Below are positions 39,655-58,496 of a stretch of DNA of 64,000 nt, piece after piece. The notes under the pieces were generated by a model. It was not told where the DNA came from and searched no databases. It worked only from the letters and a program-made list of their open reading frames with translations. Source of the stretch: Ostreococcus lucimarinus. Its lineage: Eukaryota. Numbering within the stretch: the first letter of the stretch is position 1; the number at the start of each line of letters is the position of its first letter. Both the position numbers and the translations under genes were made by a program. The stretch lies in the NCBI GenBank assembly GCA_000092065.1, contig CP000588.1; one strand, written 5' to 3'.

Positions 39655-39824
39655 GTGCGGGACGAGCGATGCGATGCGACGGCGATGCGAATGGGATGGA
39701 GGCGCGCGAGACGCGTTTGAATCTTCGCGTCGGCGAGGGAAACCGGGCACCCGAGGGAAGAAGGCGGCGCGCGAAGACTGACGATGAAACGCGCGCGTCG
39801 AACGATCGCGATTCGTGCGAACAG
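39655..39824 (+). other. RAD54: inferred spliceosomal intron of RAD54 (170 bp, GTGCGG...CAG)
   Basis: Donor AGCG|gtgcgg at 39655 (phase 1) and acceptor gaacag| at 39824 restore the frame. The joined peptide ..FKSPFPNAPNRS-A-ELERRLASRRVFVPWGSKASDVARALPKP.. is in register with the RAD54 N-terminus. Alternative acceptors were not excluded. Confidence 0.4.
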
Positions 39825-42505
39825 CGGAATTGGAGCGACGGTTGGCGAGTCGACGGGTGTTCGTGCCGTGGGGGTCGAAGGCGAGCGACGTCGCGAGGGC
39901 GTTGCCGAAGCCGACGCAGTGCGCGGCGACGGAGGAGGCGATCGTATTGCCGGAAGGGATCGAGGATTTAGTGCTTTGGGAGCCGGATCGCGAGGGTGAT
40001 GGTGGAGAGACGAGCGCGACGGCCGGTGGGGCGAGCGCGAAACCGATCGTGGTCGATCGCATGCTCACGAGATGGTTGCGACCGCACCAACGCGAGGGGG
40101 TCAAGTTTATGTTTGAGTGCGTCATGGGTTTGCGCGATTTCGAAGGCCAAGGGTGCATTCTCGCGGATGACATGGGTTTAGGTAAGACATTACAAGGGAT
40201 CACGCTGCTCTGGACGCTCTTGAAGCAAGGTATCGATGGTACGCCCGCGGTGAAGCGCGCGTTAATCGTCTGTCCGACGTCGCTGGTGTCCAACTGGGAC
40301 GACGAGTGCAACAAGTGGTTGAATGGGCGCGTGAAAACGTTGCCCATTTGCGACTCCACTCGCGCTGAAGTCGTGAGCTCGGTGAAGCAATTTCTCGCCC
40401 CGCGACATCTCGCGCAAGTCATGATTGTGAGCTACGAAACGTTTAGGATCCACTCGGACCGTTTCAACTTTGACGGCGCGGTGGATTTGATCATGTGCGA
40501 CGAAGCGCATCGCCTGAAAAACGGCGAGACGCTGACGAACAAGGCGTTGTGTTCGGTACCGTGCTTGCGAAGAGTGATGCTGAGCGGGACACCCATGCAA
40601 AATCACTTGGATGAGTTTTACTCGATGGTTGGCTTTTGCAATCCCGGCTTGCTCGGCACCCCTCCCGAGTTCGCGAAGAAGTTTGAGCGACCCATCTTGG
40701 CTGGACGCGAACCAGACGCGACGGAAAAGGAACTCGAACGCGCGCAAGAGGCGAATAGCGAGCTCTCTGATCTCGTCAACAAGTTTATCTTGCGTCGCAC
40801 GAACACGATTTTGAGTAAGCACCTTCCGCCGAAAGTCGTGGAAGTCGTGTGCTGTAAGCTTTCGCCGCTTCAGCAGGCGCTGTACGAGCACTTTCTCACG
40901 TCAAAGGCGGCGAATCAGGCGTTGACTGGAAAGGCGACGGCCGTGTTACCCGCAATCACGGCGTTAAAGAAGTTGTGCAATCACCCGAAATTGATTTACG
41001 ACATGATTAATGGCGCAAAGAACACTGGTCAAGCGGCGAGCGGATTCAGCACGTGCGCGGAATTTTTTACTCCCGGAATGTACGACGGCGGCGGGGGGCG
41101 GAGTGGTCGCGGTGGCGGTGGCATGATGCACGGCTGGGAAGAGCACAGTGGAAAGTTTGCTGTACTCGCGCGTCTTCTCGCTAATTTGCGCGCCGAGACT
41201 AAGGACCGTATCGTCATCATTTCCAATTACACGCAAACTCTCGACTTGGTGGGCAACATGTGCCGCGAGCGAAACTACCCGTTCGTGCGCCTCGACGGCT
41301 CGACGTCTATCGGAAAGCGTCAAAAGCTCGTCAAACAGTTCAATGATCCCACGAGTAATTCTTTTGTGTTTCTCTTGTCTTCCAAGGCTGGCGGATGCGG
41401 TATCAACCTCATCGGAGGTAATCGTCTCGTGTTATTCGATCCCGACTGGAATCCCGCCAACGACAAGCAAGCCGCCGCGCGGTGCTGGCGCGACGGTCAA
41501 AAGAAGAAGTGCTACTTGTATCGCTTTTTGGCCGCGGGCACGATCGAGGAGAAAGTTTTCCAGCGTCAACTGTCCAAGGAAAGCTTGCAAAACGTCGTCA
41601 ACGGTTCGGGGGAACTCGAACAATCCGTCATGTCCAAGGACGAGTTGCGAAAGTTGTTTTCGTTGGACTGCACGACGTACTCGGATACGCACGACACGTG
41701 CGGTTGCAAGCGATGCCCCGCGCGGAACGGTGACGACCTCGGGTGCGACCCGGACGCGGAATACAAGGAATGGGAGGAACAAATCGACGACGCAGACGAA
41801 CAAAAGCTCGACGAGTGGGCGCACCATCACCGCATGGACAAAGTTCCCGACGATATGATGAAAAAGTCGGCGGGCGAGGACGTATCCTTCGTGTTTTCGC
41901 TCAAAGTTGAGGGCGCGGCTATTGATGAATCGAAGAAAGCTCCAGCACCCGAAAAGAAGTCGGAGGAAGCGTCTGAGAAGAAGCCGACGCCGACGATGCC
42001 GTCGCACTCGACGCGCCCACCGACCAGATTCGTGCCGCCGGCGCGACGTCCGCTCGCGCCGCGAGTTGCGCCGCAGGCGACGGCGATGCCGGCGTATCAA
42101 CGACCGAGTACTCTGATCGCTGCGAAGCCATCGGAAGGTCGCGTGCCGCCCATGCGCGCAGCTGTGAAACCTGCCGCGAAAGCGCCCAAGAAGAAGAAGA
42201 AACTTGAGAGCGAATCCGAAGACGAAGACACCGAGGAAGAATCCGAACAGGAAGAATCTGAAGCCGAGGAAGAATCTGAAGAAGATGAGCCAGTCGCTGA
42301 TACGGAAGGGGACGACGATGATGAAGTACCAGATTCTGAAGATGAAGACGTCGCCGACACCTCTGCGCCGCGTCAAAAGCGATCATCACCGGACGCGGAT
42401 GAAAGCGCGACGCGATACAAGGCGGCGCGCCTGTCGTCCTTAACGTCAGATCGAGGCTTTGCGGTGCCGCCGCGCTCGCCCAGCGACGAATCCGACGGAT
42501 ACTAG
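39825..42505 (+). CDS. RAD54: RAD54 exon 2 (SNF2 ATPase/helicase core and acidic/Lys-rich C-terminus)
   Basis: LRPHQREGVKFMFECV, ILADDMGLGKTLQ, DEAHRLKN, LSGTPMQN (N lobe); LDGSTSIGKRQKLVKQFN, LLSSKAGGCGINLIGGNRLVLFDPDWNPANDKQAAARCWRDGQKK (C lobe); DTHDTCGCKRCP zinc-knuckle-like tail. Stop at 42505. Confidence 0.85.
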
Positions 42506-42630
42506 AAAGAAAAAGTTGTTGTTTCATTTTATTAAAAAGCTTCGATTGGCATCGCGTAATAGTGCGCTGCGTCCGCCTCCGCCCGCGCCTCTCTCCCCGG
42601 CCAACTGTCGATTCCCATCAAAACGGTTTA

Positions 42631-43193
42631 TTAGTACCCCATCTGCGCCTCGGCGGCTTCCGCGAGGATCGGGAATCGGATGTATTGACCGCTCATGCAA
42701 CCCACCGCGGCGAACGCGAAGGCGGCGAGAGTGACGACAAAGATGGCGTTGTGCATGATCATGGTCACGATTCCCGGTAAACCGATGCCCAAAATACCCG
42801 GTCCGAACAACGCCTCGAGGAGAGACGGGAAAATCAACGCGATGTCGAGCAAAATCGCTTGCATACCGTTGAAGCGGCAAAAGCGCGACAAGTTTTGATT
42901 CTTCGCGATCCCAAGATATATGGCGAAAAACATTATGAGATTCCCCATCGGCAACATCGCCACCCCGCGCAAAATCGGCATCAACGGCTTCAACAGCACC
43001 ACCGCGGCTGGAAACTGGCCGAAGAAGAAGCGCCCGTACCGCAACGCGCTCAACAACGGCAACAAGTACGGCACCAACGCCACGACGCGATCGGGCACGG
43101 GAACGATGTTAAATCCACCCCCGGCGTACCCTCGCGCGACGACCGTCGTCGTCCCTCGCGCGCGCGTCGCGCTTCTCTCCCTCGCCGCGACCG

Positions 43194-43225
<32 letters not shown>

Positions 43226-43353
43226 CCCGCGCGCGCCGTTCGCCGTCCCGTCGTCCGCGTCTCCCCCATCCCGACCGCGCGCGCCGCCACCCTTCGCCCC
43301 ATCGCCCGCGTCTGTCGCCTCGCCCGCGCCGTCGTCGTTCGCACCGCCGCCCG

Positions 43354-43384
<31 letters not shown>

Positions 43385-43709: not shown

Positions 43710-44078
43710 ATGCGCGCCGTGAACCGAATCGCCGACGGACGCGCGATCGTCGCGCGCGCGCGACGCGTCGAACGACGACGCGCGACGCGCTCGACGCGGG
43801 CGGAAAAAGAGGGCGAACAGATGAATCAAGAGATGGCCGGCGGCGAGATCGGGCTCGGCGGACTGGAGGACATGATGGACAAGGCGGACGGTGGGGCGAC
43901 GCCGGATTTCGTGAAATCGCTCGGCGTGAAGGAGTTGGACGATGTGTTCGCGATCCTCGGGTCGCAGACGAAGGGCGCGGAGCTCGGGCAGTTGGTGCTG
44001 AGCGAAAAGTTTGGGGAGACGCTGTACCGCGAGAGCGGGTTCACGAGCTTGGCGGAGACGATCAACGGTCGATGCGCG
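43710..44078 (+). CDS. LHC-like three-helix protein (ELIP/LIL type) exon 1
   Basis: The track ORF 43674 starts at TTG; first ATG at 43710 (MRAVNRIADGRAIVARARRV.. presequence). Exon 1 ends ..ESGFTSLAETINGRCA, i.e. inside the first LHC motif E-x-x-N-G-R. Confidence 0.7.
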
Positions 44079-44311
44079 GTGCGTTGGCGAGTCGCGCGAG
44101 TCGCGTCGTTCGATGGGGATTATGCGTCGAGAATCGCGATGGGGGGACGCGGACGCGCGCGCGCGGTGGCGAGCGCGAGACGGGGCGCGAGACGGGACGC
44201 GAGACGCGCGCTCGAGACGCCAGCGCTGGAAATATCTCGTCGCGCGCGCGCGAACGCGCGCGACGCGGCTGACGCGAAGACTGACTGACGAATATGTTTA
44301 CGCCAACGCAG
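44079..44311 (+). other. spliceosomal intron (233 bp, GTGCGT...CAG) of the LHC-like gene
   Basis: Donor GCG|gtgcgt at 44079 and acceptor cgcag| at 44311 join frame 0 to frame 2. This creates the contiguous LHC helix-1 motif AETINGRCAMVGFVLAV (compare ETINGRLAMIGF of ELIPs); phase 0. Confidence 0.75.
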
Positions 44312-44602
44312 ATGGTTGGTTTCGTTCTCGCCGTCATGAACACCTTCAACGGTGACTTGCTCACGATGATGGCCAAGGTTCCCCTCGCCGTCGTCTTCGT
44401 CATCGCCACCATCAGCGCGGCGAGCGTCGTGCAAAAGGTGAACCCGACGGGCTACATCCCGGACAACGTCAACGGTGCCGCCATGAACGCGTACTCCGGC
44501 GCTAAGTTGGACGAAGTGTTCACTTACAAGGCGGAACTGGTGAACGGTCGCATGGCTATGCTCGCCATGCTCTTCTTCGTCGCCACCGCGTCGATCTTTT
44601 AA
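44312..44602 (+). CDS. LHC-like three-helix protein (ELIP/LIL type) exon 2
   Basis: Encodes the rest of helix 1, a central hydrophobic helix (KVPLAVVFVIATISAASVV) and the helix-3 LHC motif ELVNGRMAMLAMLFFV; stop at 44602. Confidence 0.75.
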   Translation: MVGFVLAVMNTFNGDLLTMMAKVPLAVVFVIATISAASVVQKVNPTGYIPDNVNGAAMNAYSGAKLDEVFTYKAELVNGRMAMLAMLFFVATASIF

Positions 44603-44836: not shown

Positions 44837-45634
44837 ATGCGTCTCACCAAAGCTCAAAAAGAACGCGATGCGCTCCTACTCGCGCGATTTCGTGTCTACC
44901 GCGAGTGGTGTCTACCGCGCGAGGTGCGGCAATGCATAGAGATTCGAACTCGCACGGCCAATCAACAACTCTACGAGGACTGTAAACATCTCGCGCAGAC
45001 GTCGAGAGGGCGAAAGCGAGACCTCGGCCGCGCGCTCGAACGCGTCGGGTGCGCCGAACGACACGCGCACGCGCTCTGTCAATCGTTCATAAGAGGGTCC
45101 GCGCACGTATCGTGGACGGCACGCGGAGTTGCGCATGAAATGGCGCGGCAAAAGTACTTGCTCGAGCACTCCGGTGCGTTCAAACGCGAGATCGGCGCGA
45201 TGGCGGCGAAGATCAACAAACGCCTTCACGAGTTGGTGATGGCGCGCGGACGTGTCGAAAGCGTCAGAGATGACTCAATAGTGTATGAACGAATTCGTTC
45301 GGAGGCGACGCGGGATGTGACTGGAGCGGAGACCTTCGCGGCGGCGGCGGCGAGCGTCGCGAGACACTGGCGAGATTTCCCTGTGGGGGGTTGGCCGTGG
45401 CCTACGGCGCCGCCGCCCGCTCCACTCACGAAAGGAGAAAAAGCGGTGTTATTCTTGAAGAAACTGAAATGTCACGGAGCACGCGAGCACGACAAGTTCG
45501 TGAACATCATGAACATGCACAAATATAATTTTCTGAGCGTGCGAGACGTCGATCGAGAAGTCGCCGCGTTGCTGCCGCGTCATCCGCTGCTGCGCGAGTT
45601 CAGAGAGACGTTCTTGCGCCCCGCGAGCGCGTGA
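44837..45634 (+). CDS. hypothetical protein, paralog A of a tandem pair (family unknown)
   Basis: ATG verified at 44837; MRLTKAQKERDALLLARFRVYREW..IEIRTRTANQQL..KHLAQTSRGRKRDLGRALERVGCAERH..SFIRGS..WTARGVAHEMARQKYLLEHSGAFKREIG.. The conserved N-terminal ~110 aa are shared with paralog B. Confidence 0.5.
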   Translation: MRLTKAQKERDALLLARFRVYREWCLPREVRQCIEIRTRTANQQLYEDCKHLAQTSRGRKRDLGRALERVGCAERHAHALCQSFIRGSAHVSWTARGVAHEMARQKYLLEHSGAFKREIGAMAAKINKRLHELVMARGRVESVRDDSIVYERIRSEATRDVTGAETFAAAAASVARHWRDFPVGGWPWPTAPPPAPLTKGEKAVLFLKKLKCHGAREHDKFVNIMNMHKYNFLSVRDVDREVAALLPRHPLLREFRETFLRPASA

Positions 45635-45694
45635 GCGGTCGCATTGATGCGTGCTAACGCGACCATTATTCGACGATACTGTATGACATGATTG

Positions 45695-45699
45695 TGTAA
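45695..45699 (+). promoter_or_regulatory. TGTAA poly(A)-signal-like motif downstream of paralog A
   Basis: gattgTGTAAtatgactg read directly, about 60 nt after stop 45634. Confidence 0.3.
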
Positions 45700-45715
45700 T
45701 ATGACTGTATGACTT

Positions 45716-45780
45716 CCAGACGAGTGACGACGTCGCGACGCCGCCAGACGAGTGACGACGTCGCGACGTCGCGACGCCGC
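45716..45780. repeat. 28-bp tandem duplication (ccagacgagtgacgacgtcgcgacgccg x2 with an 8-bp insertion) between the two paralogs
   Basis: Read directly: ccagacgagtgacgacgtcgcgacgccg ccagacgagtgacgacgtcgcgacg tcgcgacg ccgcg. Confidence 0.75.
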
Positions 45781-45815
45781 GCGCGCGCTCCTTCACAACG
45801 CGCCTCTTCGACGCA

Positions 45816-46397
45816 ATGGTTCGACTGACCAAGATCGAGAAGAACCGAAGAAAGCTCATCAGCTGTAGATTGCTCGTCTATAAGCTCCACGCGCTACCTG
45901 TCGAATCGTGGCGAATCATCGAGCGTCATACGCGCGCGTTAAATCTGGAACTCTGGCACAAGACGAAACACTTGCAGCAAACTGCGAAGCAGCGCAGGGC
46001 TGATGTGAAGGCGGCTCTCCAGACTCATGGGTGCGAAGATCGCATCGACGAATACCCAATAAGCAAGCGATTTATCGCCGGGAAACTCAAAAGTTGGACG
46101 GCGATACGCGTCGCGGAGCACGTTGCAAAACTCAGATATCTCCTAGACGGACACTCTCGGGAGTTTGAACGAGAAATGGCTGAGCTCGAAGGCGCAATCG
46201 ATGATGAGGTTGAAGAAATCGCCGAGATCGCGGGCATGGAACGAGGCAGAGGGCCGATTTATTTCGGTGGTATTCGTCGTGAGGCGCTGCGCAACGTGCA
46301 CGGTGCTGAAAGCTACGACGAAGCCCGGATATGCATGGCCGAGAGCTTCACCGGTGACATGCCGCGGGTCTGGCCTTGGCTCGAGCGCCGGGTCTGA
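45816..46397 (+). CDS. hypothetical protein, paralog B of the tandem pair (family unknown)
   Basis: ATG verified at 45816; MVRLTKIEKNRRKLISCRLLVYKL..IERHTRALNLEL..KHLQQTAKQRRADVKAALQTHGCEDR..RFIAGK..WTAIRVAEHVAKLRYLLDGHSREFEREMA.. aligns position-for-position with paralog A (roughly 30% identity) and ends with a shared WPW motif. Confidence 0.5.
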   Translation: MVRLTKIEKNRRKLISCRLLVYKLHALPVESWRIIERHTRALNLELWHKTKHLQQTAKQRRADVKAALQTHGCEDRIDEYPISKRFIAGKLKSWTAIRVAEHVAKLRYLLDGHSREFEREMAELEGAIDDEVEEIAEIAGMERGRGPIYFGGIRREALRNVHGAESYDEARICMAESFTGDMPRVWPWLERRV

Positions 46398-46460
46398 GCG
46401 ACGATGTCAATAGTTATCGATGTGACTTACAATGCTCGATTGCATACAAAACGTACTCGT

Positions 46461-49400
46461 TCACACGACGAGATTTGCACGCTCGGCGCGCCCCTCTGGC
46501 GTGCGGCGCTCGCGACGCTCACGAGCGAAGTCGAGAATCGAGCGCGATTTAAACACCGCTAAGACGATGACGCACACGAAAGCGAATGGAGCCGCGAACG
46601 CGACGAACGAACCAAATGGACGCTCAAAATCGCGCACATCGCCGAGGGAAGCGTGTTTACCTTGTACGTCGTCGACGGCGTCACCACGCGCTTTTTCGTG
46701 GTGCTCATCTTTGACTCCGACATCTTTCACGCCGAGCTCTTTCACGCCGAGCGCGACGGTAGCCGCCGCTGCTCTTCGCACGAGCTCGTGAGCGGTGATT
46801 ACGTTTTTCTCTGCGGCGCCGAGTCCTGCATCATTCGCTTCAATCAGCCTATCTCGCAGATGCCCTTTACTTAAACCAATAGGAGCAACGATCTGGTCTT
46901 CTGGCACCGAACCAAGAATCGCAGAGCACTGTCCTGCACACGTTCCGAAGACGAAATTTTGCGACGCGAGATTCGGGGTGTGGTACTGCACTCGATTTCT
47001 CCACTTTCCCGCCTGCACGTCCGTACAGTCGGACGTGAACGCCGGAGACGCAGTCTCTCCGTAGTAGGCTTGCCACATTTCGTGACCGAAAATGTGTCCC
47101 GAATCGTAGACGTGATTGCCTTCGGCGTCCGCCAGCGCGAACCCGTAAGCGACGGAACCAGACCAACCACTTAGTGTGGCGCCGTAAGTGCATGTATGAT
47201 AGTAATCATTTCCATCGCGCCCGGTTATCGGAGTCATGGCGATACCTCTGCTGTACGGCCACCTCATGCGGTTACCAAGAGGTGGTCTCTGTGATACGAG
47301 CTTGACTTGCGTCAAATCATCGACTGCCAGCGGGACGTGAAGATAACGCTCGTCTACGCCTTCCTCGGCTTCTCGCGTAGACGTGTTGTTCAGTGTGTAC
47401 TCTATTACGCTTTGTGGAATGCACTCCGTACTGACGTAGTAGCACGGCGGAGGAACGACCATGCATGGATCAGCAGCCGGACAACTCGGATGTTTGTGAT
47501 CTGAAGCTGAGAGCGCCTCAAGAATGCCTTCCAACTCGCTCGTATCGTTGTCTTGAGGGCAAACCAAGTCATCGGAATCGCAGTTCCAGAGCGCGCCGAC
47601 AGGACCTTGAACGTCGAGTTGCGTTCGAGACCCGGCGCACGTAGCCTTGCAGTTTCTGCCGTATCTGAAATGCCATTGAGCTCCATAGGTGCTGAGACTA
47701 TTGCGATGATACTTCGACAGATACGCCGGCATCGTAATGTCGTCAGCCACATCATCAACAATACTCGCCAATGGAACTGGGAGAATGGGAATGTGTGTGT
47801 GATTGTTACGGTGCCCATACACCGGAACGACGTATGGGTTAGCGACAAACACGACGAAAGGTTCCATTTCGAACGATTCGTGCTCGTCGTATTCCGGAAC
47901 ACTCGCGAGCGGCACGAATGGCGCAAAGTGGGGCGGTGGTGGCGGGCTCGGAGGCGGGCTCGGAGGCGGGCTCGGAGGCGGGCTCGGAGGCGGGCTCGGA
48001 GGCGGGCTCGGAGGCGGGCTCGGAGGCGGGCTCGGAGGCGGGCTCGGAGGCGGGCTCGGAGGCGGGCTCGGAGGCGGGCTCGGAGGCGGGCTCGGCGGGC
48101 TCGGAGGAGGGCTCGGAGGAGGGCTCGGAGGAGGGCTCGGAGGAGGGCTCGGAGGAGGGCTCGGAGGAGGGCTCGGAGGCGGGCTCGGAGGCGGGCTCGG
48201 AGGCGGGCTCGGAGGCGGACTCGGTGTTGGCGTCGGCGTCGGCGTCGGCGTCGGTGCGGCAGCCAGGGCGGCGGCGGCATTAGGTGCCAGCACTGCGTTG
48301 TGATATTCGAGATACCTCTCTTCTGCTTCCAAGTTAAAAGTCGCCAAGTCGTCTTGCGCGAGCTGCGCATCCAAATCAGTCAAGAATGAATAACTATTCG
48401 TCGTTTTCCAGGCCTCGATTGTGTCTACAACGTGTTGTTGGTACACTTCATCGGCAGATATATTGACATTTTGGTTGAACGACCAAACATCTGCAGCCGC
48501 AGCTTCTGAATCTAGTGAAAGATCACAGAGGTACGTGTTTATTGTGCACTGCGAAGACTGCCATTCGTCCACCTTCGTCGTAATGTAGCGTTCTTTCACT
48601 GCAGCGTTCGTACTGGTCACGTCGTCGTTGGATTGCAATCTTGCTTCTGGAGTGGTCACGCTGTACGAGTGCGTAGACGCCCACGTCGAAACACGAGAAC
48701 TCTCCGTATTCCAGTAATGGGCGTCGTAGGCCGACTCGAGCGCTGCGTTGTATCCCTCCAGATCGTTGACCACGTCACGGATCGGCCAACCCGATGGCGC
48801 ATACCCAGTCGCGGCGTTTGAAAGCAAGAAATCGTCCAAGGCGGCTTGTTCGTCGATTTGGAGCTCGAGGTGCTTGTCACCGGAAAGTTGTTCAAATCGA
48901 TCCATCCATTTCTTCGTCGAAGCGCTGATCGACAAACCTTTGCGGTAAAACTTGCCTAATTTCGACACATCCCCCGCGCGATAGTAAAGACGGAAAAACT
49001 CGAATAGATAGTCTTTAGTATCACTGGCGATATCGGCATCGCTGATCGCATGTCTCGTCAGCCAAGCTTGCAAATCCCGTTGCACGCGCGCGTTTATCAT
49101 CAAAAACGCCGCGTAACGCATGTCCATCACGAACGTAGTCGTATCGCTCGGATCACCGTATCCGGAAGCCGGTCTCAGCACTGATTCAGTCATCCAAGGA
49201 CACGTGTAAGTGAGTCGAAGACTACCGAAGTAATCTGGGCTGTACGTTTTCCACACCTCGTTCCGATTGCCGTCGTCATCCGCGCCCGTGATGACGCACG
49301 CGTCATAATCGGCGTCTCCAGCGTAATGCTCGCTCACATACGCCGTGAGCGCACTCTGAAACTTGGGCAAGTTAAAAGGTTGCATTATTTGCGTGTCGTA

Positions 49401-49790
49401 GTTCGCGTATCGCGGGTTTTCGCGCATCATGATCCCGGGACATCTATCGAAGCGGTCCGTCACGCCGCGATGGCTGTACCTCATGCATCCCGGGTGCGGC
49501 ACTCTGGGGTCATCCACGTGCGTGTACGCCCCGAGCGTCCCCACCGCGGCGATCGACACCGTCACGCACGCGAGCGCGACGGCGAGCGCGCGCCCGATCG
49601 TCACCACCGCGCGCACATTTCGTCGAGTGTGCGGTCGGGTGTTCCGCGTCGTCGTCATCGTTCTCGGCCGTGGACGCACATTCGATAGGGTGTTACGCGT
49701 CGTCGTCATCGTTCTCGCCTTTCCCGTCTCGCCGGCGACGATCACGCCGGTGCGCGGGAGAGAAGCATCGCGACGCTGTTTCGATGGCAT
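46461..49790 (-). CDS. extensin-like hydroxyproline-rich-glycoprotein-type membrane protein with (SPPP)n module
   Basis: ATG verified at 49790; 1109 aa. N-terminal signal-anchor ([26 protein letters not shown]), a large Cys-containing globular region, then (TP)5 + (SPPP)~25 and a second Cys-rich globular region. C-terminal hydrophobic segment ([22 protein letters not shown]) and basic tail. GC is lower than in flanking genes. Confidence 0.6.
47941..48251 (-). repeat. near-perfect 12-bp coding microsatellite (ggaggcgggctc)n ~23 copies plus (ggcgtc)5, encoding (SPPP)n(TP)n
   Basis: Read directly on plus strand 47941-48221: ggcgggctcgga repeated, with five central ggagggctcgga variants, followed by ggcgtcggcgtcggcgtcggcgtc. 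Confidence 0.9.
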
Positions 49791-50047
49791 CCTTCGCGTC
49801 GACGCGCGCGGTGATGTCGGCGTGCGCAGAGGCGCGACGCGAAGTGTCCATCGCTGGTCGGATCTTGTTAAATATGTAACATCGTTTGGGTCCGCTTTAG
49901 TAGTGTTTGGATCCGTTATAGTGCTATCTTGGGTCCGCCCTCAGTATTTTTTCCGTCCAGAGCTAAGTAAGCCCTGGACCGCGTCTCTTGAAATTTCGTC
50001 TAAGAAACTTTCGATGTGACTACAAATGTGTGACTGTGTGTGTACGA

Positions 50048-50686
50048 CTAATCCAATCTCAGCGGCATCTCTTCCTTGCGCACGCCGTCGGCGTTCATGA
50101 TCCACAGCTCCACGCGGTCGCCCGTGTAAATGTCGCGCTCCGCCGCCGTCGCGAAGCAATCCTTGATCAGCTCGATCGCCGCCGCCTCGCTCAACGGCGT
50201 CGCGCTCGACACCGCGGGCAGCACCAAAGGCGAAACCGTCTTGAGCTGATTATCCAACACCGGCATGATCAACGCCTGTCCCGAACCTTGACAGGAATAA
50301 TTCGTCCGTTCGTACGAGCCCACGGCGTCGTACGTAAACACCGCCCCTTTCCCTTCCGCGTCCAACCCCGCGACGATGTTAAACGCGTAATACGGAAAAA
50401 ACCTTCGGTAGTACAGCGTATTACTCAGCATTTGAGCGAACGACACGCATCCGATAGGCTTCTTATTTTGAAACTCGTACTGCTTGCATCGCGCCTTGAG
50501 CGTCTTCTTCAGCGTCTGCGCGTCCGCCATGAACCCCGCGCTCGCCATGAGCGTCTTCGGGCTCATCTGATCCACCTTTTCGTAATTTCTCGTCAAGATG
50601 CTGTATCCCGTGCTCATCCGCGTGTCGCTCGCGCATATCACATAATTTTCGCCCGCCACCGCGAGCACCGTCCCGCCGTTGTTGTC
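50048..50686 (-). CDS. proteasome subunit beta type-6-like (PBF1/PSMB1 homolog) exon 2
   Basis: DNNGGTVLAVAGENYVICASDTRMSTGYSILTRNYEKV..SNTLYYRRFFPYYAFNIVAGLDAEGKGAVFTYDAVGSYER..TAAERDIYTGDRVELWIM closely matches plant PBF1. An in-frame TAG immediately 5-prime of the DNNGG codons shows the ORF begins at an acceptor. Confidence 0.85.
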   Translation of the reverse strand, partial: DNNGGTVLAVAGENYVICASDTRMSTGYSILTRNYEKVDQMSPKTLMASAGFMADAQTLKKTLKARCKQYEFQNKKPIGCVSFAQMLSNTLYYRRFFPYYAFNIVAGLDAEGKGAVFTYDAVGSYERTNYSCQGSGQALIMPVLDNQLKTVSPLVLPAVSSATPLSEAAAIELIKDCFATAAERDIYTGDRVELWIMNADGVRKEEMPLRLD

Positions 50687-50926
50687 CTATCGAGCGCGTC
50701 GTCGAGCGCGTCGTCAGTCATCGCGATCCTTCCTTCGTCGCCGTCGATGCGATCGGACGATCGCATCGACGTCATCGCGTCTTCGTTCATTCATCGCCTC
50801 GCGCGCGCGCGTCCCGTCGCGACGTAAACCGCATCGACGCGTCATCAACCGCGATTGCGTCCGCGCGCGTCGTCGCGTCTCACGCCTCGCGCGCGCGCGC
50901 GCGCGCGTCGCTCGCGTCGCGCACGC
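50687..50926 (-). other. spliceosomal intron (240 bp, GTGCGT...TAG) of the proteasome beta gene
   Basis: On the minus strand the exon-1 codon TAC is followed by gtgcgt (plus 50926-50921). The acceptor ..ctcgatag| precedes GACAACAAC at 50686; phase 0. Confidence 0.75.
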
Positions 50927-50971
50927 ACGTATGGCGACCAATTCGCGTGTTGTCTCGCGCCTTCGGGCGCC
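50927..50971 (-). CDS. proteasome beta subunit exon 1 (45-nt micro-exon MAPEGARQHANWSPY)
   Basis: Minus-strand ATG at 50971-50969; encodes MAPEGARQHANWSPY. The QHANWSPY block matches the N-terminus of Arabidopsis PBF1 (MTKQHANWSPYDNNGGT) and joins exon 2 to give ..NWSPYDNNGGT. Confidence 0.75.
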
Positions 50972-51093
50972 ATCGCGCTCGGATCGGCCGCGCGCGCGCG
51001 CGAAAGTGACGCGGGATCGACGCTCGGAGGGACTTTCAGCCGTTGACCTCAATTCGCGTCGCGCGATTCGCTCGCCCGTCGCGCGCGCGCGCG

Positions 51094-53793
51094 ATGGAGC
51101 TGTTTCGGAGCGAGCGAATGTCGCTCGCGCGCGTCATCGTGCCCGAGGAAGCCGCGCGGGACACGATCGAACGCGTGGGCGAGCTCGGGGTGATGCAGTT
51201 TCAAGATCTGAACTCGGACACGCCGGCGTTTAAGCGCGCGTACTCGACGCAGATACGACGCGCGGACGAACTGCTGCGACGGTTGCGGTACTTTCGAGAC
51301 GAAGCGCGACGAGCGACGATCGCGGTGGCGCGATCGAGACGGAGAAACGCGACGGGACGCGGGAGCGGGGCGACGACGACGACGACGGACGAACTGGACC
51401 ACGTCACGGAGGAGCTCGAACGCGATCTCGCGCAAGCGCTGAAGAATTACGAGAGGCTGATGAGGACGCACAGCGAGTTGATGGAGCTGCAGTTGGTGCT
51501 GGAGAAGGCGGGGGGGATATTTGAGGAGAGTCGAGCGGACGGAGGAGGGCGCGGCGGCGGCGACGTGGATTTTCGCGGGACGCGGTCGTACGACGACGTC
51601 GAGGGGGGGGGCGAAAGCTTGCTGCCTGTCGCGAGTGTCGGCATGGGCGCGGCGACGGAGCGGCGCGGTGAGATGGGATCGAGGTCGGGGTCGTATTTAG
51701 AGATGGCGGAATTGGACGCCGCGGGCTCGAGCGGGCGAAGCGGCGACGGCGCGTCCGCGTCGTCCAACAGCGCCGCGGGCGCGTCGGCGGTGCGACTCGG
51801 ATTCATCACTGGAGTTATCCTCACGAATAAGGTGATCTCGTTCGAGCGGATTTTGTTTCGCGCGACGCGAGGGAACATGTTTTTGAAGCAGTCGCAAATC
51901 CTGGGCACCGTCGTCGACCCCACGACGGGCGAAAAGTGCGAAAAGACCGTGTGCGTGGTGTTTTTCGCGGGTGAGCGAGCGAGAGAGAAAATCATCAAAA
52001 TCTGTGAGGCGTTCAACGTGAATCGGTATCCGTTCCCTGAGGATTACACACGTCAGCGACAAATGTACGCCGAGTGCACGGCGCGTCTCGTCGAGTTGCA
52101 GTCAACGCTCGACGCTTCCACGCAGCATCGCGACGATGTTTTGCGTAAAGTGGGCGACAGTCTGGAAGATTGGATTCAAATAGTTCTGCGCGAGAAGGCT
52201 ATTTATCACACGATGAGCATGTGCTCGGTCGACGTCACACGAAAGGTGCTCGTGGCTCAAGCTTGGATTCCTGACTACGCGCTGTCCTCCGTGCAGACCG
52301 CCTTGACGGATGCGAATCATTCCTCGCTCGCTTCCGTTGGGACGATTTTTCAGCAAATAGAAACCAAGGAATCCCCGCCGACGCACTTTCAGACGAACAA
52401 AGTCACCTCAGTCTTCCAAGGCATCGTCGACGCGTACGGCGTCGCGAGCTATCGCGAGGTGAATCCCACGGTGTTCACCATCGTGACTTTCCCATTCCTA
52501 TTCGCCGTCATGTTCGGTGATTTTGGCCATGGATTTCTCATGCTCTTCGCCGCGCTATATTTGGTGATGAACGAAAAGAAGCTCGCGGCGTCGGGACTGA
52601 ACGAAATCATCCAGATGGCGTTCGACGGTCGATACGCCATCCTACTCATGTCCATTTTTAGTATTTACACTGGTTTACTCTACAACGAATGTTTCTCTGT
52701 ACCAATGAATTGGTTCGGTGCGAGTAAGTATGTGTGCGATCCAAATGACCCGACGGCGTCTACGACGTGCGATTCGGCGTATAAGACCGGCCTGGTGAAT
52801 AACGGCGACGGCGCGTACGCCTTTGGCGTCGACCCCATCTGGCACGGTTCGCGTTCGGAATTGCCGTTTTTGAACTCGCTGAAGATGAAAATGTCTATTT
52901 TGATGGGTGTGACGCAGATGATGCTCGGAATCTTCATGTCATTCCTAAATCAGGTGTACACAAACGACAAGCTCTCGATGTATTGCGAGTTTTTCCCGCA
53001 AGTCATCTTCCTCGGCGCGCTCTTCGGATACCTGTCGTTGCTGATCCTCATCAAGTGGTGCACGCCTGGTTCGACTGCCGATTTGTATCACGTTATGATA
53101 TACATGTTCCTTTCCCCGGGCAACGTCGATTGCGCCGGCGAAGGCGAAAACGGCGGTCCCGGTTGCCCCGAAAACGTCTTGTTCCCAGGGCAAGCGGGCT
53201 TTCAAAATTTTTTGTTGTTTCTCGCCTTTGTGGCGGTGCCGGTGATGCTGTTTCCGAAACCGTACATTTTGAAGAAGCGACACGAAGCGTCCCGAGGCGG
53301 GGTTCGGCGAGGCGGCGTGCGATACGCGCGGCTTGATGCAGAAGATGACGACGACGAGGCGTTTTTGCAAGCGTCAGATGCGGAGAACAGCTCACCGTCG
53401 GCTGAAGAGGAAGAAGAATTTGATTTCGGCGAAATCATGGTGCATCAAGGGATCCATACCATTGAATTCGTTCTCGGCGCTGTGTCAAATACCGCGTCTT
53501 ATCTTCGTCTTTGGGCGCTGTCACTAGCGCATGCGCAACTCTCAGCCGTGTTTTGGGATCGCGTCTTCATGGGCGCCGTGGCGAGCGGAAACGTCGTCGC
53601 CATCGTGATGGGTTTCGCCGTGTGGGCGTTCGCCACGATTGGGGTGCTCATGCTCATGGAATCTCTGTCCGCGTTTTTACACGCGTTGCGCTTGCACTGG
53701 GTCGAGTTCAACAACAAGTTCTTCAAAGGAGCCGGCTATGCCTTCGTCCCGTTCACCTTCGTCGGTCTCAGCGACAAGTCCGACGACGCGTGA
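51094..53793 (+). CDS. V-type H+-ATPase V0 subunit a (VHA-a, 100-116 kDa subunit)
   Basis: ATG verified at 51094 (MELFRSERMSLARVIVPEEAARDTIERVGELGVMQFQDLN..). The family-typical C-terminal membrane region (..LSLAHAQLS..) is present. A Gly/Ser-rich insertion includes a G9 homopolymer at 51601-51609. Stop at 53793. Confidence 0.9.
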   Translation: MELFRSERMSLARVIVPEEAARDTIERVGELGVMQFQDLNSDTPAFKRAYSTQIRRADELLRRLRYFRDEARRATIAVARSRRRNATGRGSGATTTTTDELDHVTEELERDLAQALKNYERLMRTHSELMELQLVLEKAGGIFEESRADGGGRGGGDVDFRGTRSYDDVEGGGESLLPVASVGMGAATERRGEMGSRSGSYLEMAELDAAGSSGRSGDGASASSNSAAGASAVRLGFITGVILTNKVISFERILFRATRGNMFLKQSQILGTVVDPTTGEKCEKTVCVVFFAGERAREKIIKICEAFNVNRYPFPEDYTRQRQMYAECTARLVELQSTLDASTQHRDDVLRKVGDSLEDWIQIVLREKAIYHTMSMCSVDVTRKVLVAQAWIPDYALSSVQTALTDANHSSLASVGTIFQQIETKESPPTHFQTNKVTSVFQGIVDAYGVASYREVNPTVFTIVTFPFLFAVMFGDFGHGFLMLFAALYLVMNEKKLAASGLNEIIQMAFDGRYAILLMSIFSIYTGLLYNECFSVPMNWFGASKYVCDPNDPTASTTCDSAYKTGLVNNGDGAYAFGVDPIWHGSRSELPFLNSLKMKMSILMGVTQMMLGIFMSFLNQVYTNDKLSMYCEFFPQVIFLGALFGYLSLLILIKWCTPGSTADLYHVMIYMFLSPGNVDCAGEGENGGPGCPENVLFPGQAGFQNFLLFLAFVAVPVMLFPKPYILKKRHEASRGGVRRGGVRYARLDAEDDDDEAFLQASDAENSSPSAEEEEEFDFGEIMVHQGIHTIEFVLGAVSNTASYLRLWALSLAHAQLSAVFWDRVFMGAVASGNVVAIVMGFAVWAFATIGVLMLMESLSAFLHALRLHWVEFNNKFFKGAGYAFVPFTFVGLSDKSDDA

Positions 53794-53836
53794 ACAGAAC
53801 GGCAAATTAGCATCATGATATGATACGAATTGATTG

Positions 53837-53841
53837 TGTAA
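53837..53841 (+). promoter_or_regulatory. TGTAA poly(A)-signal-like motif 44 nt after the V-ATPase subunit a stop
   Basis: attgattgTGTAAtgataaacg read directly; AT-rich 3-prime UTR. Confidence 0.4.
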
Positions 53842-53884
53842 TGATAAACGTTACAACATTTAGCAAAATGATAGTGTATACAGT

Positions 53885-56080
53885 TCACGACGACGAGCGC
53901 GTTCGTCTGAGCCACGGTCTTGAGTCGCCCGTTTGCGTTTCGACGGTGTGCGTTCGGCGCGCGTCAAAAAGCGAGTCGCGATTTGTGAGGTCTATGAAGA
54001 CCTCCACAGCCTGAAGACCAATGAATGCAAGAGCGCCTCGTCTTGATGTTTCGCTTTGGTCGAGCGCTGATAATCCGACCGCGATGCCGACGACGGCGCA
54101 CAGGGAACTCCACGCGTGCTGTACACCGCGAATTTTTCGGCGGCGGCGATTGTCCGCGCAAAGCGCCGCGAGTAAGTTTTTGAAAGTATCCCAGTATAGA
54201 TATTGACACCTTGACACGCGTATTTGCCGCGCACCTTGTGATACGCGCGCGACGAAATGTGCCAGTCGCACGTGATCGTTTTCGCATTGGCGATTGAGAC
54301 GCGAGGCGAGGCGATTGAAATCAACGCTCCATGCGATGAAGACGGTAAAGGCGAAAGCCACCGCCGCGTCCGCCGCGCTCGTCATCGTGAAGCCCGCGGC
54401 AAGTGCGACGTAGATTACTCGCGCGAACGCGTGTGCGGTCCTCGAATACTGCAGCGAATGCGCGACAATGCGTTGCATCGCAATGGATGCCACAAACGTT
54501 CCGATGGCAGCGTATAAGAGCGCGTTGGAAGGATTCCACATTCGTCGCTTGCCGTCGAGCCATCTTTCAAAAGCGTGCAGTGATATAGCTGGAGTGATAC
54601 CGACGCATGCAAAGATACTGACGATCAACGAAACTGATTGAAAGTTCCAACCTTTCATGGACGCGGCAACGTTCTTCGTTGGGGCAGCGAGAAATTCTCG
54701 CGGCGACGGATGAATAACCCTTGACTTGTCAATCGGCGCAGTCTGTCGCCGCGACGACGACGACGACAGCGCTCGATGAATTGTGTGCGCGTCGCAACCC
54801 TCCAGCATAGAGCTCCATTTACCGATGAACACGACGCTGTTGCCTTCGGTGATGACGATACGATGGCACAAAGGAAGTACGGCGATATCAGTCGTGGTGA
54901 ACACGCAGGACCGACGCCGGTTTGTTAGGCGATTCATTGCTCGCAATCGCGCGCGTTCATCGTATATTTCATAGAATGGGTCTTGTGCCAGCATGATACG
55001 AGCGTGCGCGCACCTTGCACGCTCCAAACCGATTTCACACGCACCACCATCGCTCGTGCTACACGCGATGACGTCGTCCGCGGTTTCCTTTGGTCGCTTG
55101 CGAAGCGCACATTCCAGGTAGCGATCTGATGAGCATAACGCCGCTTCTAACGACTCTATCAGGCGCGATCGTTTCAGAGCATCTACGCGTGATGAAGCAG
55201 ATCCCAACACCAGCGCGTTGACACGCCTATCGACGGGTTCGGGCACGCGCCATTCCTTGCTCGGCGAAAGCAGTACGTCAACTTCGTCCGCATGTTCGAC
55301 GCCTCGAATAAGTCGATTAAATAAGTCGTATCGTCCATCGCCGACGATGGCGACGAGCTCTCCGCCGTTTTCAACGAGCGCCGATGTTGACACAGAGGGC
55401 CCTCTGTGAGAGCTCCGTTCGTTGTCGGTCACGAGAGCTACAAATTCGACGCGTCGTGCCGAGTCAATTTTCGCTCGCCGAGCGCTCACGAGCGCTCGAA
55501 CGCATGCTCGAGTCAAAATCAGCGCTGAAAATGCATCTGCTTCGTCGATGTATCGTACATACGCGGAATGTGCGAAGCAAGCGGTAATCAACACCGCGTA
55601 AGCGACCGCATCCACGTAGTTCTGTCTCGATCCAGAAACTGCCAAAGCAGCCTCGCTTTGCGCAAACAGTCGCCATTCATGCGCAATTCGTTCCGCGCAC
55701 AGTGAACGGTTTGATGCCAGCAATAAAGTATCATAAACTGCTCGCTCGTATTTCTCCGTCACGCGCAAACGCGTTAATCGCGAAACTGTGTCGACGACGC
55801 CGAGCGCGGCGAAAGATGGCAAAATCCAACCGAGCTCGCCGCGAGAGACCAATCGGCGAACGCCGAACGCACAAAACACCGTCGAGGTGAATATCAAGAT
55901 ATTGAGAAAACGACACGCAAAAATCAATCCATCGACGTGCGAGAATCTCGATGCGTTTTCGTGTTTCGTATCCCCAATGTGAAAGAGTTCCTCGCGGCTC
56001 CAACGCGCGAGAAGACCAAACCATCGCGACGTCGGTGCGGGCGCAAACGCGCTCGCGGCGTGACGCGCGCGTGAAAGCAT
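53885..56080 (-). CDS. multi-pass membrane protein with central soluble domain carrying degenerate ABC-NBD-like motifs; hypothetical
   Basis: Continuous 786-codon ORF to ATG 56245; that start overlaps the CCD stop by 35 bp, so internal ATG 56080-56078 (MLSRARH..) is preferred. Hydrophobic helices occur at both ends (LIFACRFLNILIFTSTVFCAF; SLIVSIFACVGITPAISL; VIYVALAAGFTMTSA; AWSSLCAVVGIAVGLSAL). The middle segment has Walker-A-like VAIVGDGRYDLFNRL and H-loop/D-loop-like TTTDIAVLPLCHRIVITEGNSVVFIG. Lower GC than the surroundings. Confidence 0.4.
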   Translation of the reverse strand: MLSRARHAASAFAPAPTSRWFGLLARWSREELFHIGDTKHENASRFSHVDGLIFACRFLNILIFTSTVFCAFGVRRLVSRGELGWILPSFAALGVVDTVSRLTRLRVTEKYERAVYDTLLLASNRSLCAERIAHEWRLFAQSEAALAVSGSRQNYVDAVAYAVLITACFAHSAYVRYIDEADAFSALILTRACVRALVSARRAKIDSARRVEFVALVTDNERSSHRGPSVSTSALVENGGELVAIVGDGRYDLFNRLIRGVEHADEVDVLLSPSKEWRVPEPVDRRVNALVLGSASSRVDALKRSRLIESLEAALCSSDRYLECALRKRPKETADDVIACSTSDGGACEIGLERARCAHARIMLAQDPFYEIYDERARLRAMNRLTNRRRSCVFTTTDIAVLPLCHRIVITEGNSVVFIGKWSSMLEGCDAHTIHRALSSSSSRRQTAPIDKSRVIHPSPREFLAAPTKNVAASMKGWNFQSVSLIVSIFACVGITPAISLHAFERWLDGKRRMWNPSNALLYAAIGTFVASIAMQRIVAHSLQYSRTAHAFARVIYVALAAGFTMTSAADAAVAFAFTVFIAWSVDFNRLASRLNRQCENDHVRLAHFVARVSQGARQIRVSRCQYLYWDTFKNLLAALCADNRRRRKIRGVQHAWSSLCAVVGIAVGLSALDQSETSRRGALAFIGLQAVEVFIDLTNRDSLFDARRTHTVETQTGDSRPWLRRTRSSS

Positions 56081-56210
56081 GTGTCTTATGCGGGTTTTTG
56101 GAACTACACGCGAAATCGAAGTCGTAGAATGTTGCGAGTTGCGTTCTGCAGCTGCAGCTGCCTCGGGACGCGCGAAACGACAACGAATACAACATGTTAC
56201 AAGATAGATA

Positions 56211-57920
56211 CTACAGCGGCCAGTCTGGAAGTGGTCCGGGTACATATTCGCAATGAAATCCGTACGGTACGCGCATTGGAATATGCACGACGCACTGCGT
56301 CGTGAGTTCGTCGCCCGAGGCGTCTAAAATTAATAACTCTGCTCGAGGCTCTTCACCGTCGACGTCGAGGTGTGTCAACACGAGCAAATAACCGTCGTCT
56401 TCGCGCGCGGCATCTTTCGAAGGAACGAAAATAATGTCACCACACGTGACACCTTCACCTAATTCGTATCGAGTCGTCACTCCTGACTGTAGGTCGTGCT
56501 TGAGTACGGCGTCGAACAGAGGAATGTCCATGCGCGACTTTGGTTCGGTGCCCAATTTGTACGCCACCGAGTACGCGAAGCGGTACTTTAAGCCAGTGTA
56601 CTTGCGGTTAATACACGGAAAGTCGGAAGTCTGTTCGCATAGGCGCTTGCTCGATATTATCGCGTTAGCGTCGGTGTCGATTTGCCATCTCCACAACGCC
56701 GCAACGTCGCGACCGGCGTTCACTGGATTCTTCGCCGGCGTTGAACGCGGCACGTTCGACTCTTGGCACATCCCCAACGCGTTCGTTTCGTCGGCTTTGC
56801 ACACATCCAACGTCAGAATATTTCCTTCTTCGTACGCGTTCACGACGTGATACGCAAAGCACGTCTCGCCAGTGTCAATCCAAAACGGCCCTTCCTCACC
56901 TCTTCGTGGGAGATATCCGATACGCAACGTGCATTCTCTTTCAAAGCTAAACGGCAGTCCGCCTTCGATGACGCGCGGCAAGTTGAAGATCAACGGCCCA
57001 TCGATCAGCACCGTCTTTGTCGGCGTGATGGCGACGTCGTGTTGCATCGAGGGTCGAGGCACTTTAAATTGCCGCCGGTGCGTGCGTTTCCCCGTCTCGC
57101 CGTCGATCACGCCAACCGTGATCGTCGTCTGCCCATCCTGCTCGCCGCTCAGCGCCACGAGATTGTACCCGATGTAAATTAACTCGTCCGTCATCGGGCA
57201 CGTCTTCGAATGCGCGGTGAAATTGTCCAGCCAATAATCCATCGTGCCAAACGTCTGATTGAAATCGCACAGCCCTTTCGTGCGCAGCGTCGGCTCTAAC
57301 GCGATCTCGTACGGCGAACCGCTCTCGTACGTCGCTAACAATCGCCCCGCATGATGCGTCAATCCGTTACTACTCGTATTCTTGGACTGAATGACGAAGA
57401 ACGCCGAATCCGGCTGCCGAACGTCCAAGGTCATCTTTTCCAACAACCTCGGCAGCAAGTACCGCCAAATCGGATTTATATCCCGGAGCCCCGTGTACAG
57501 CGCCGCGTTCGCCTTTTCTTCTCGCTCGAAACCGCGCGTGCGCACGTACCGCCTTGTATACTCCGCTCGTTCGCCCTCGCCGCGCAAACGAATCGCGTGC
57601 ACCATGCCGTCGCCGTCGAACCAGTGATACCGATTCGTCCCGAGCGCCGGTCGAAATCGCGCGTTCGGGCCGTTCCGCAGGTACAACCCGTCCAAATCGT
57701 CCGGCAACCGCCCGCGCGCGACGACGCACGCGACGGGCGTCTCGAGCTCGCCCTCCACCGGCGCGAAGTTCCCAGATAACGCCGGGTTCGTCGTCGCGTC
57801 GTCGTCGAGCCACCGCGGCGCGCGCGAGATCGCGCGCGCGCGCGTCCCGGACGCATCGCTCGACCGCTCGCGCCGCGCGTCGACGCCCGCGGCGGCGCGC
57901 GAGACGCACAGCGCGCGCAT
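56211..57920 (-). CDS. carotenoid cleavage dioxygenase (CCD/NCED/RPE65 family)
   Basis: Family blocks: PDDLDGLYLRNGPNARF..HWFDGDGMVHAIRL; HHAGRLLATYESGSPYEI; His ligands in ..TAHSKTCPMTDELIYIGY.. and FAYHVVNAYEEGNILTLDVC; C-terminal ..PYGFHCEYVPG. ATG 57920 gives a ~45-aa presequence. The track ORF continues to 58514 through a Ser/Ala-rich low-complexity stretch that is antisense to CWC15. Confidence 0.75.
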   Translation of the reverse strand: MRALCVSRAAAGVDARRERSSDASGTRARAISRAPRWLDDDATTNPALSGNFAPVEGELETPVACVVARGRLPDDLDGLYLRNGPNARFRPALGTNRYHWFDGDGMVHAIRLRGEGERAEYTRRYVRTRGFEREEKANAALYTGLRDINPIWRYLLPRLLEKMTLDVRQPDSAFFVIQSKNTSSNGLTHHAGRLLATYESGSPYEIALEPTLRTKGLCDFNQTFGTMDYWLDNFTAHSKTCPMTDELIYIGYNLVALSGEQDGQTTITVGVIDGETGKRTHRRQFKVPRPSMQHDVAITPTKTVLIDGPLIFNLPRVIEGGLPFSFERECTLRIGYLPRRGEEGPFWIDTGETCFAYHVVNAYEEGNILTLDVCKADETNALGMCQESNVPRSTPAKNPVNAGRDVAALWRWQIDTDANAIISSKRLCEQTSDFPCINRKYTGLKYRFAYSVAYKLGTEPKSRMDIPLFDAVLKHDLQSGVTTRYELGEGVTCGDIIFVPSKDAAREDDGYLLVLTHLDVDGEEPRAELLILDASGDELTTQCVVHIPMRVPYGFHCEYVPGPLPDWPL

Positions 57921-57969
57921 CGCGAACGCGAGGACGAATTCGACGCTCGACGCGTCACTCACTGACGCG
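57921..57969. promoter_or_regulatory. 49-bp divergent (head-to-head) intergenic region between CCD and CWC15 start codons
   Basis: CCD ATG at 57920 (minus) and CWC15 ATG at 57970 (plus), both verified in the sequence. A shared promoter region is an inference. Confidence 0.3.
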
Positions 57970-58354
57970 ATGACGACCGCGCACCGACCGACGTGGGCGC
58001 CGGCGAAGGGAAAGGAACACCAAGGCGGCGCGCGCCTGTTCGGACCGAGCGCCAAGCACAGCAAACTCGACGCGAATGGATTCATGACGCTGAAGACGAG
58101 ACACGAATCGCAATCGGGCGCGGACGCGCTGCTCGCGCGGGATTTGCGCGCTGAGCTCGAGGAAAAGGAACGACGGGCGAAAGGAAAGGGCGCGATCGCG
58201 GGCGCGGACGTGAAGGAGACGATCGCGGCGCTGGGGAGCGGGGCGAGCGATGATGGTGGACGGTTTCGAACGCGAGCGGAGGACGCGGACGACGACGCGA
58301 GCGCGAGCGGGAGCGACGACGAGAGCGATTCGGGGAGCGATGATGAGAGCGATG
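57970..58354 (+). CDS. CWC15: spliceosome-associated protein CWC15 (AD002) exon 1
   Basis: ATG verified at 57970; MTTAHRPTWAPAKGKEHQGG.. (compare metazoan MTTAARPTFEPARGG..), ..RDLRAELEEKERRA.., acidic Ser/Asp tract ending SDDESD-G. Confidence 0.8.
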
Positions 58355-58496
58355 GTGCGTGTGCGATGTTTTCGTCTCTCGCGAACGATGGCGCGGCGCG
58401 CGATGCGATGCGAGACGCGAGACGCGAGACGCGAGACGCGAGACCCGACGACGCGAGGCGACGGCTGACTAACCCTACCACGCTCTCGATTCGCAG
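58355..58496 (+). other. CWC15: spliceosomal intron (142 bp, GTGCGT...CAG) of CWC15
   Basis: Donor GATG|gtgcgt at 58355 (phase 1) and acceptor ttcgcag| at 58496. The joined peptide ..[21 protein letters not shown].. matches the conserved CWC15 block ..[18 protein letters not shown]. Confidence 0.8.

Follow-up and report, generated by a model that had tools for sequence, protein, structure and literature searches.

How are genes interrupted in a compact genome with few introns, and are the signals at the interruptions distinctive enough for further introns to be predicted from them? We addressed this question in a stretch of 64,000 nucleotides (nt) of the Ostreococcus lucimarinus CCE9901 genome (the window), where an initial annotation had proposed one intron in each of four genes, encoding RAD54, an ELIP/LHC-like protein (ELIP, early light inducible protein), proteasome beta-6 and CWC15. 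We find that these are almost certainly U2-type (GT-AG) spliceosomal introns of the canonical kind, probably within the bulk of the genome that is poor in introns and rich in guanine and cytosine (GC), and that they carry the strict signals typical of the lineage. The observation is real but known, as the motifs were published in 2008 and the four introns are already annotated.

The four introns and their removal

Direct reading of the letters confirmed the GTGCG[T/G] donors and YAG ends that had been claimed, with GTGCGT in three introns and GTGCGG in RAD54. The RAD54 intron lies on the plus strand at 39655-39824 (170 nt) within a two-exon coding region at 39384-42505; it has GTGCGG at 39655-39660 and a CAG end, and its context, with a slash at each splice junction, is gcg/GTGCGGGA at the donor, AAGACTGACGAT 43 nt from the 3′ end, and GAACAG/c at the acceptor. 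The ELIP-like intron (44079-44311, plus strand, 233 nt; two-exon coding region 43710-44602) begins with GTGCGT at 44079-44084 in the context gcg/GTGCGTTG, contains GACTGACTGACGAA 23 nt from its 3′ end and closes with a CAG in ACGCAG/a. The CWC15 intron (58355-58496, plus strand, 142 nt; two-exon coding region 57970-58822) has GTGCGT at 58355-58360 in atg/GTGCGTGT, ACGGCTGACTAA 28 nt from its 3′ end and a CAG in TCGCAG/a. On the minus strand, the proteasome beta-6 intron (50687-50928, 242 nt; two-exon coding region 50048-50973) has GTGCGT running from 50928 in tac/GTGCGTGC, GATGACTGACGAC 27 nt from its 3′ end and a TAG in CGATAG/g. The coordinates first proposed are exact for the three plus-strand introns, and for the proteasome intron the donor side moves from 50926 to 50928. 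The upstream exon there ends ...TCG CCA TAC at 50929 and only a donor at 50928 restores the frame; position 50926 falls inside the hexamer, and a second GTGCG at 50924 is out of frame. The lower end of the length range first given, 142-240 bp, holds, and the upper end becomes 242. Since none of the four lengths is a multiple of 3, each intron shifts the reading frame. All four also contain [A/G]CTGAC 23-43 nt before the 3′ end, a motif that the initial annotation did not mention.

Removing the four introns yields proteins that are already in the public record. The spliced RAD54 product is identical to XP_001419229.1 at 983/983 residues, and the spliced ELIP-like (219 amino acids, aa), proteasome (227 aa) and CWC15 (236 aa) products are exactly XP_001419230.1 ('possible early light inducible protein'), XP_001419449.1 and XP_001419234.1 (Cwf15/Cwc15), so the four introns are part of the existing O. 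lucimarinus gene models. Homologues agree with these joins. For RAD54, 11 homologues, some of them transcript-derived MMETSP proteins, can be aligned across the junction NRS/AEL without a gap, and S90, L93 and L97 are invariant. The ELIP-like junction splits a conserved helix motif, ETINGRCA/MVGF, and the spliced product matches Pfam Chloroa_b-bind. The spliced proteasome product covers the Pfam Proteasome profile nearly end to end and has no gap against spinach beta-6 (7qve) across HANWSPY/DNNGGT, while spliced CWC15 covers Pfam Cwf_Cwc_15 at positions 1-244 of 244 and aligns without a gap at the junction to PDB 8xi2.

Uninterrupted copies of three of the genes were found in Logan contigs of public sequencing runs, in which the spliced proteins occur as uninterrupted open reading frames (ORFs); the junctions were checked with 60-mers. 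The contigs, L003 to L007, come from four runs (ERR9850624, SRR28369097, SRR28369150 and DRR699210). The ELIP-like intron is missing from L003 (ERR9850624), the proteasome intron from L004 (SRR28369097), and the CWC15 intron from L005 (SRR28369097), L006 (DRR699210) and L007 (SRR28369150), each with an exact junction. All five match the window at 99.5-100% identity and lack precisely the predicted GT...AG intervals. An in-frame alternative donor for CWC15 at 58361 is ruled out by the junctions in L005-L007. The loss of exactly a GT...AG interval in three cases, from sequence that is otherwise almost unchanged, is most readily accounted for if the contigs derive from complementary DNA (cDNA), which would make their source RNA. 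The transcript check of the four proposed junctions therefore gives exact junctions in presumed cDNA for the ELIP-like, proteasome and CWC15 genes and none for RAD54. Together with the identity to annotated proteins and the gap-free alignments, these contigs bear out the claim that the introns split conserved proteins across frames.

The same observations could be read as artefacts of the gene models: the genes would be pseudogenes with frameshifts, or separate ORFs, and the contigs without introns would be genomic alleles that have lost a segment. The sample type of the Logan runs is itself deduced, and metagenome gene callers do predict each exon ORF on its own, which gives this reading some footing. 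However, it needs three independent, precise GT...AG deletions in 99.5-100% identical sequence, every join restores a gap-free alignment to a conserved protein across the junction, and between lineages the splice signals are conserved and the intron interiors are not. We give an artefact next to no chance and continue with spliceosomal introns.

The contigs themselves show further features. L004 (window 50046-53973) and L005 (window 54970-59875) each cover several adjacent genes on both strands, and their span includes head-to-head gene pairs with spacers of ~120 bp. If L004 and L005 are RNA-derived, this would mean overlapping transcription units or transcribed intergenic regions in a very compact genome. 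L003 starts and finishes with Nextera transposase adapter, and in its 3′ part a further ~170 nt, placed after the window match and before the adapter, have no match to the window (positions concerned, 1-20 and 730-915); this public assembly contains adapter contamination or a chimera.

Donor and branch-site signals

On its two strands together, the window has 7,913 hexamers that begin with GT, of which 123 are GTGCG[TG], so four independent junctions would all carry it by chance with P ~6e-8. The count of GTGCGT is 69, where 61-72 would be expected, and that of GTGCGG is 54. The donor is therefore well beyond chance at the junctions and at chance frequency across the window. It had been proposed that further introns could be predicted by scanning genes for gtgcgt or acgcac, but this holds only in part: just 4 of the 69 sites, or 123 with GTGCGG, are the reported donors, and the precision of a donor-only scan is roughly 3%.

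A scan for donor, branch-site and acceptor signals together, followed by inspection, found three additional introns. Two lie in genes whose 5′ ends had been singled out as apparently truncated. Directly upstream of ORF 12149-13225, a gene for a CheY-like protein has a minus-strand intron at 13226-13360 (135 nt) with a GTGCGA donor in gag/GTGCGACG, GATGACTGACGAC 33 nt from the 3′ end and the acceptor GAACAG/g; spliced from ATG 13408 it is exactly XP_001419438.1 (374 aa), an identity with the annotation. In the Kelch-repeat gene, a plus-strand intron is predicted at 31004-31112 (109 nt; GTGCGA donor in tcg/GTGCGACG, GGGACTGACGCC 30 nt from the 3′ end, CGATAG/g). Its donor is the apparent 'GTG start' of ORF 31004-34039, and exon 1 begins at ATG 30796 or ATG 30826; neither spliced model has an exact database protein match. 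The 88-aa protein P0407 was considered as a transcript spanning the Kelch junction and rejected, as it is exon 1 reading into the unspliced intron. For the third apparently truncated gene, an ankyrin-repeat gene at 13634-14917, no donor or branch signal was found upstream, and an in-frame ATG lies at 13718. In substance, then, the expectation of a 5′ intron was correct for two of these three genes.

The third additional intron is in a small Cys-rich gene (coding sequence 34185-34592, plus strand), at 34234-34344 (111 nt; GTACGC donor in cgg/GTACGCGC, ACGACTGACCGC 21 nt from the 3′ end, GCTCAG/g). The spliced product of 98 aa is exactly XP_001419227.1, and an unspliced ORF of 135 aa is called on DNA contigs; the intron is a multiple of 3 and stop-free, so retaining it would lengthen the protein by 37 residues. 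The 98-aa and 135-aa forms of this gene, MCRRVQCSKCDKPTWAGCGMH..., are both in databases. Its C-terminal tail is not conserved and shares ~58 nt with the 3′ end of the kinesin gene, which is convergent, and in strain L008 the stop codon comes earlier. The L008 contig was rejected as a spliced transcript of this gene, being genomic and intron-bearing. A Pfam search with the exon-1 peptides of the CheY-like, Kelch and small Cys-rich genes gave no support.

Other candidates, which show a full complement of signals inside coding sequence, were rejected as false positives. The minus-strand interval 49042-49299 has GTGCGT, GCTGAC, CAG and a length that is a multiple of 3, but the repeat-protein gene aligns contiguously with its homologue there. 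A minus-strand candidate at 39055-39217/39233 is the NDUFA5 presequence, and a CTGAC at 45824, considered as a branch site, is coding sequence.

The donors of the three additional introns (GTGCGA, GTGCGA and GTACGC) are all missed by GTGCG[T/G]. Across the seven introns, six begin with GTGCG (P ~4e-8), one has +3A (the GTACGC donor), and position +6 is T in 3, A in 2, and G and C in 1 each; on the exon side, 6/7 have G at -1, and -2 is not consistently A. The branch-site signal is stronger. RCTGAC lies within 45 nt of the 3′ end in 7/7 introns (P ~1e-14), as ACTGAC in six and GCTGAC in CWC15, at 21-43 nt. The octamer GACTGACG is present in 5/7 introns; it occurs 8 times in the window, against 2.7-4.6 expected, and 5 of the 8 are inside introns, which make up 1,142 nt or 0.9% of the sequence of both strands (P ~3e-9). 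This octamer discriminates far better than the donor hexamer, whose predictive power the initial annotation overstated, having read the introns themselves correctly.

In the mechanism we propose, a 5′ splice site G/GTGCGT(G), more generally GTRCGN, and a branch site (G)ACTGAC(G) 21-43 nt upstream of a YAG acceptor would direct excision from the precursor messenger RNA, joining two ORFs in different frames into one conserved protein. By analogy with spliceosomes in general, U1 and U6 would recognise the GUGCGU donor, with +3G as a wobble pair and +4C as a mismatch to a standard U1 5′ end; U2 would pair with ACUGAC and bulge the branch adenosine, and splicing would take place at a nearby downstream YAG. 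In 5/7 introns no other AG lies between the branch site and the acceptor, and the U12-type motifs (an [A/G]TATCCTT donor and a TCCTTAAC branch site) are found in 0/7.

The unusual +4C could alternatively be due to a co-evolved, complementary 5′ end of the lineage's U1 small nuclear RNA (snRNA). Irimia & Roy (PLoS Genet 2008, PMC2483917) raised this possibility, and an analogous report exists for Mastigamoeba, with GUGCGC donors and a modified U1. However, Roy & Bowser (2022, bioRxiv 10.1101/2022.06.08.495308), who describe a GYGCGY preference in Mamiellales, found standard pairing regions in all U1 candidates of five Mamiellales genomes including O. lucimarinus, and a canonical ACUUACCU U1 5′ end is reported for O. 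lucimarinus. A compensating change in U1 is thus very unlikely, and we retain recognition by a standard U1.

Several points weigh against assigning all these introns to the canonical spliceosomal class. A spliced RAD54 contig was looked for and none was recovered; the removal of that intron is probable from annotation and homology. The assignment of the Logan runs to RNA rather than DNA libraries is deduced, and branch-point use and snRNA pairing are taken from general knowledge. A loose composite of GTGCG, RCTGAC and YAG gives 9 matches in the window against 7.0 ± 2.8 in second-order Markov simulations. CTGAC itself appears depleted in low-order models only, being as frequent as expected under a third-order model. 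With the composite at chance level, the case rests on signals that coincide with independently defined junctions and not on motif counts.

Conservation, origin and composition

Syntenic contigs from two related Ostreococcus-like lineages, L009 (RAD54 89% identical) and L010 (83%), share the intron positions of the Kelch, small Cys-rich, RAD54, ELIP and proteasome genes. Across the window, L009 and L010, 14 orthologous introns with defined boundaries were compared. Their donors all fit GTRCGN (GTGCGT 8, GTACGT 3, GTGCGG 1, GTGCGA 1, GTACGC 1), with +4C and +5G invariant; 12 have ACTGAC as the branch site and 2 have ACTAAC, again 21-43 nt from YAG. Intron lengths vary up to ~two-fold between the lineages, with GC contents of 0.50-0.73. 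As position and signals are kept and length and GC differ, we infer that these are old introns under selection on the splice signals only. The Kelch gene of both L009 and L010 is interrupted in phase 1 at the same Gly codon, the one preceding TWD/TFD, by introns with a GTGCGTG donor and a CTGAC branch site. The product motif TWAGCGMH of the small Cys-rich gene is likewise kept in both lineages despite differing intron sequences. In L010 the junction of this gene (L010 6337-6456; GTGCGT donor, CTAAC branch site) lies 6 nt further downstream, possibly by intron sliding.

Shared donors might also reflect descent from a transposon rather than selection, if the introns belonged to a mobile family of introner elements like that of Micromonas pusilla. 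A 20-mer around the branch site (CGCGATGACTGACGACGCGC) is indeed identical between the CheY-like and proteasome introns, which also have in common, near their 5′ ends, a GC-rich stretch of 34 nt at 91% identity, and GC-rich modules recur in several introns: GCGAGAC, repeated five times in the CWC15 intron, GATGCGAT in 4/7 introns, and (CG)n runs. The Micromonas elements IE-A to IE-D also resemble the window introns in having GYGCGT donors (IE-A1/A2) and GACTGACG (IE-C). However, introner elements are multi-copy, similar in sequence and lineage-specific, whereas an all-versus-all blastn of the seven window introns gave only low-complexity or branch-site-consensus matches and no full-length similarity. 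Five of the introns also keep their positions, one of them 6 nt off, in two sister lineages with different lengths and composition, which marks these five as old, and the literature consulted describes introner elements in Micromonas only (Verhelst et al. 2013, PMC3879977). Descent from such a family is extremely unlikely, and ordinary spliceosomal introns with conserved signals remain our explanation. The sharing between the CheY-like and proteasome introns goes beyond the published 8-nt branch consensus and could reflect an extended consensus or distant common ancestry.

In the seven introns, G makes up 38% and T 11% of the sense strand, and a polypyrimidine tract is lacking. Their GC content (0.64-0.73) is above the window mean, and that of the L009/L010 orthologues is 0.50-0.63. 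One could imagine that the strict branch octamer and G/A-rich intronic elements have replaced recognition of a polypyrimidine tract, or that introns have undergone a lineage-specific homogenisation of GC, but we consider this doubtful; either, if true, would refine a known system modestly and would not amount to a new kind of element. A role of the introns as hosts of small nucleolar RNAs (snoRNAs) was rejected: there are no Rfam matches, no intron has a C box, and the O. tauri snoRNA supplement lists no host genes matching the intron-bearing genes.

Neighbouring genes and related systems

The window has a GC content of ~0.61 (0.53-0.68 across 2-kb bins) and is part of a record of 701,771 bp. 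We count ~7 introns among ~38 genes. The tightly packed eukaryotic genes include those for tubulin, ValRS, kinesin, a SET-domain protein, V-ATPase subunit a, RPE65, cyclophilin/FKBP and a Na/H exchanger. An Rfam scan of the window gave no matches and no snRNA gene, and a scan for transfer RNA genes found none.

Some gene models in the window differ from the ORFs that we observe. The kinesin gene (34537-36420, minus strand) is represented in GenBank by a partial model of 418 aa (XP_001419445.1) against a complete ORF of 628 aa, and NDUFA5 (38676-39122, minus strand) by a partial model of 97 aa (XP_001419446.1) against one of 149 aa. Because metagenomes repeatedly yield calls of the complete ORFs, both reference models appear truncated. 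The minus-strand gene at 46461-49790 encodes a protein of 1109 aa with a proline-rich (SPPP)n/PPSPPPS repeat run of ~130 residues, much longer than in its homologues P0001 and P0002 (55-57% identical). These homologues sit on non-syntenic contigs and are of no use for intron comparison; an exact look-up of the 1109-aa ORF and of P0130 in the contig index returned no record. This gene and two small genes at 44837-46397 are missing from the ELIP-to-proteasome interval of L009 and L010, marking a break in synteny. The C-terminus of the plus-strand gene at 17719-18585 looks Tim44/MRPL45-like by eye. A coding-like minus-strand ORF at 17742-18326, with a third-codon-position GC content of 0.85, was rejected as an antisense shadow of this gene; such shadows are a trap for reading an ORF track in a GC-rich genome.

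The closest known counterparts of the window introns are those of the same organism. Irimia & Roy (PMC2483917) studied 319 O. lucimarinus introns outside chromosome 2 that were confirmed by expressed sequence tags and described an 'atypical consensus GTGCGTG', with ACTGAC in 87% and GACTGACG in 66.5%. The donor and the branch site are the same in the window, and the intron-poor context probably is too; position +6 is looser in our small sample of seven, and nothing substantive differs. In contrast, signals are weak in the intron-rich part of chromosome 2 (PMC2483917). The short introns of that chromosome's low-GC region belong to the same genome but are 40-65 bp long, with a GTRNGT donor and no clear branch motif, whereas the window introns are 109-242 nt with strong signals.

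More distantly, Verhelst et al. (PMC3879977) reported AG/GTGCGT donors and an NCTGAC branch motif for Micromonas, with the canonical class found across all Mamiellophyceae. Canonical introns of Micromonas RCC299 and CCMP1545 have these motifs in common with the window, but their branch motif lies 43-52 nt upstream of the acceptor and not 21-43 nt, and the exon side of the window donors does not share the AG of Micromonas as consistently. Hemiascomycete yeasts (GTATGT, TACTAAC) show a convergent likeness: an intron-poor genome with near-invariant donor and branch motifs, in which the donor departs from U1 complementarity at +4 without a compensating change in U1. The lineages are unrelated, and the window introns differ in their motifs (GTGCGT, ACTGAC) and in being GC-rich and T-poor. 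Earlier publications already cover the motifs, the association with an intron-poor genome and the absence of a compensating U1 change.

For the annotation of these genomes, the window illustrates that callers relying on ORFs split such genes, as is seen in metagenome gene calls. Gene finding in Mamiellophyceae must model the lineage donor GTRCGN and, more usefully, the branch site GACTGACG.

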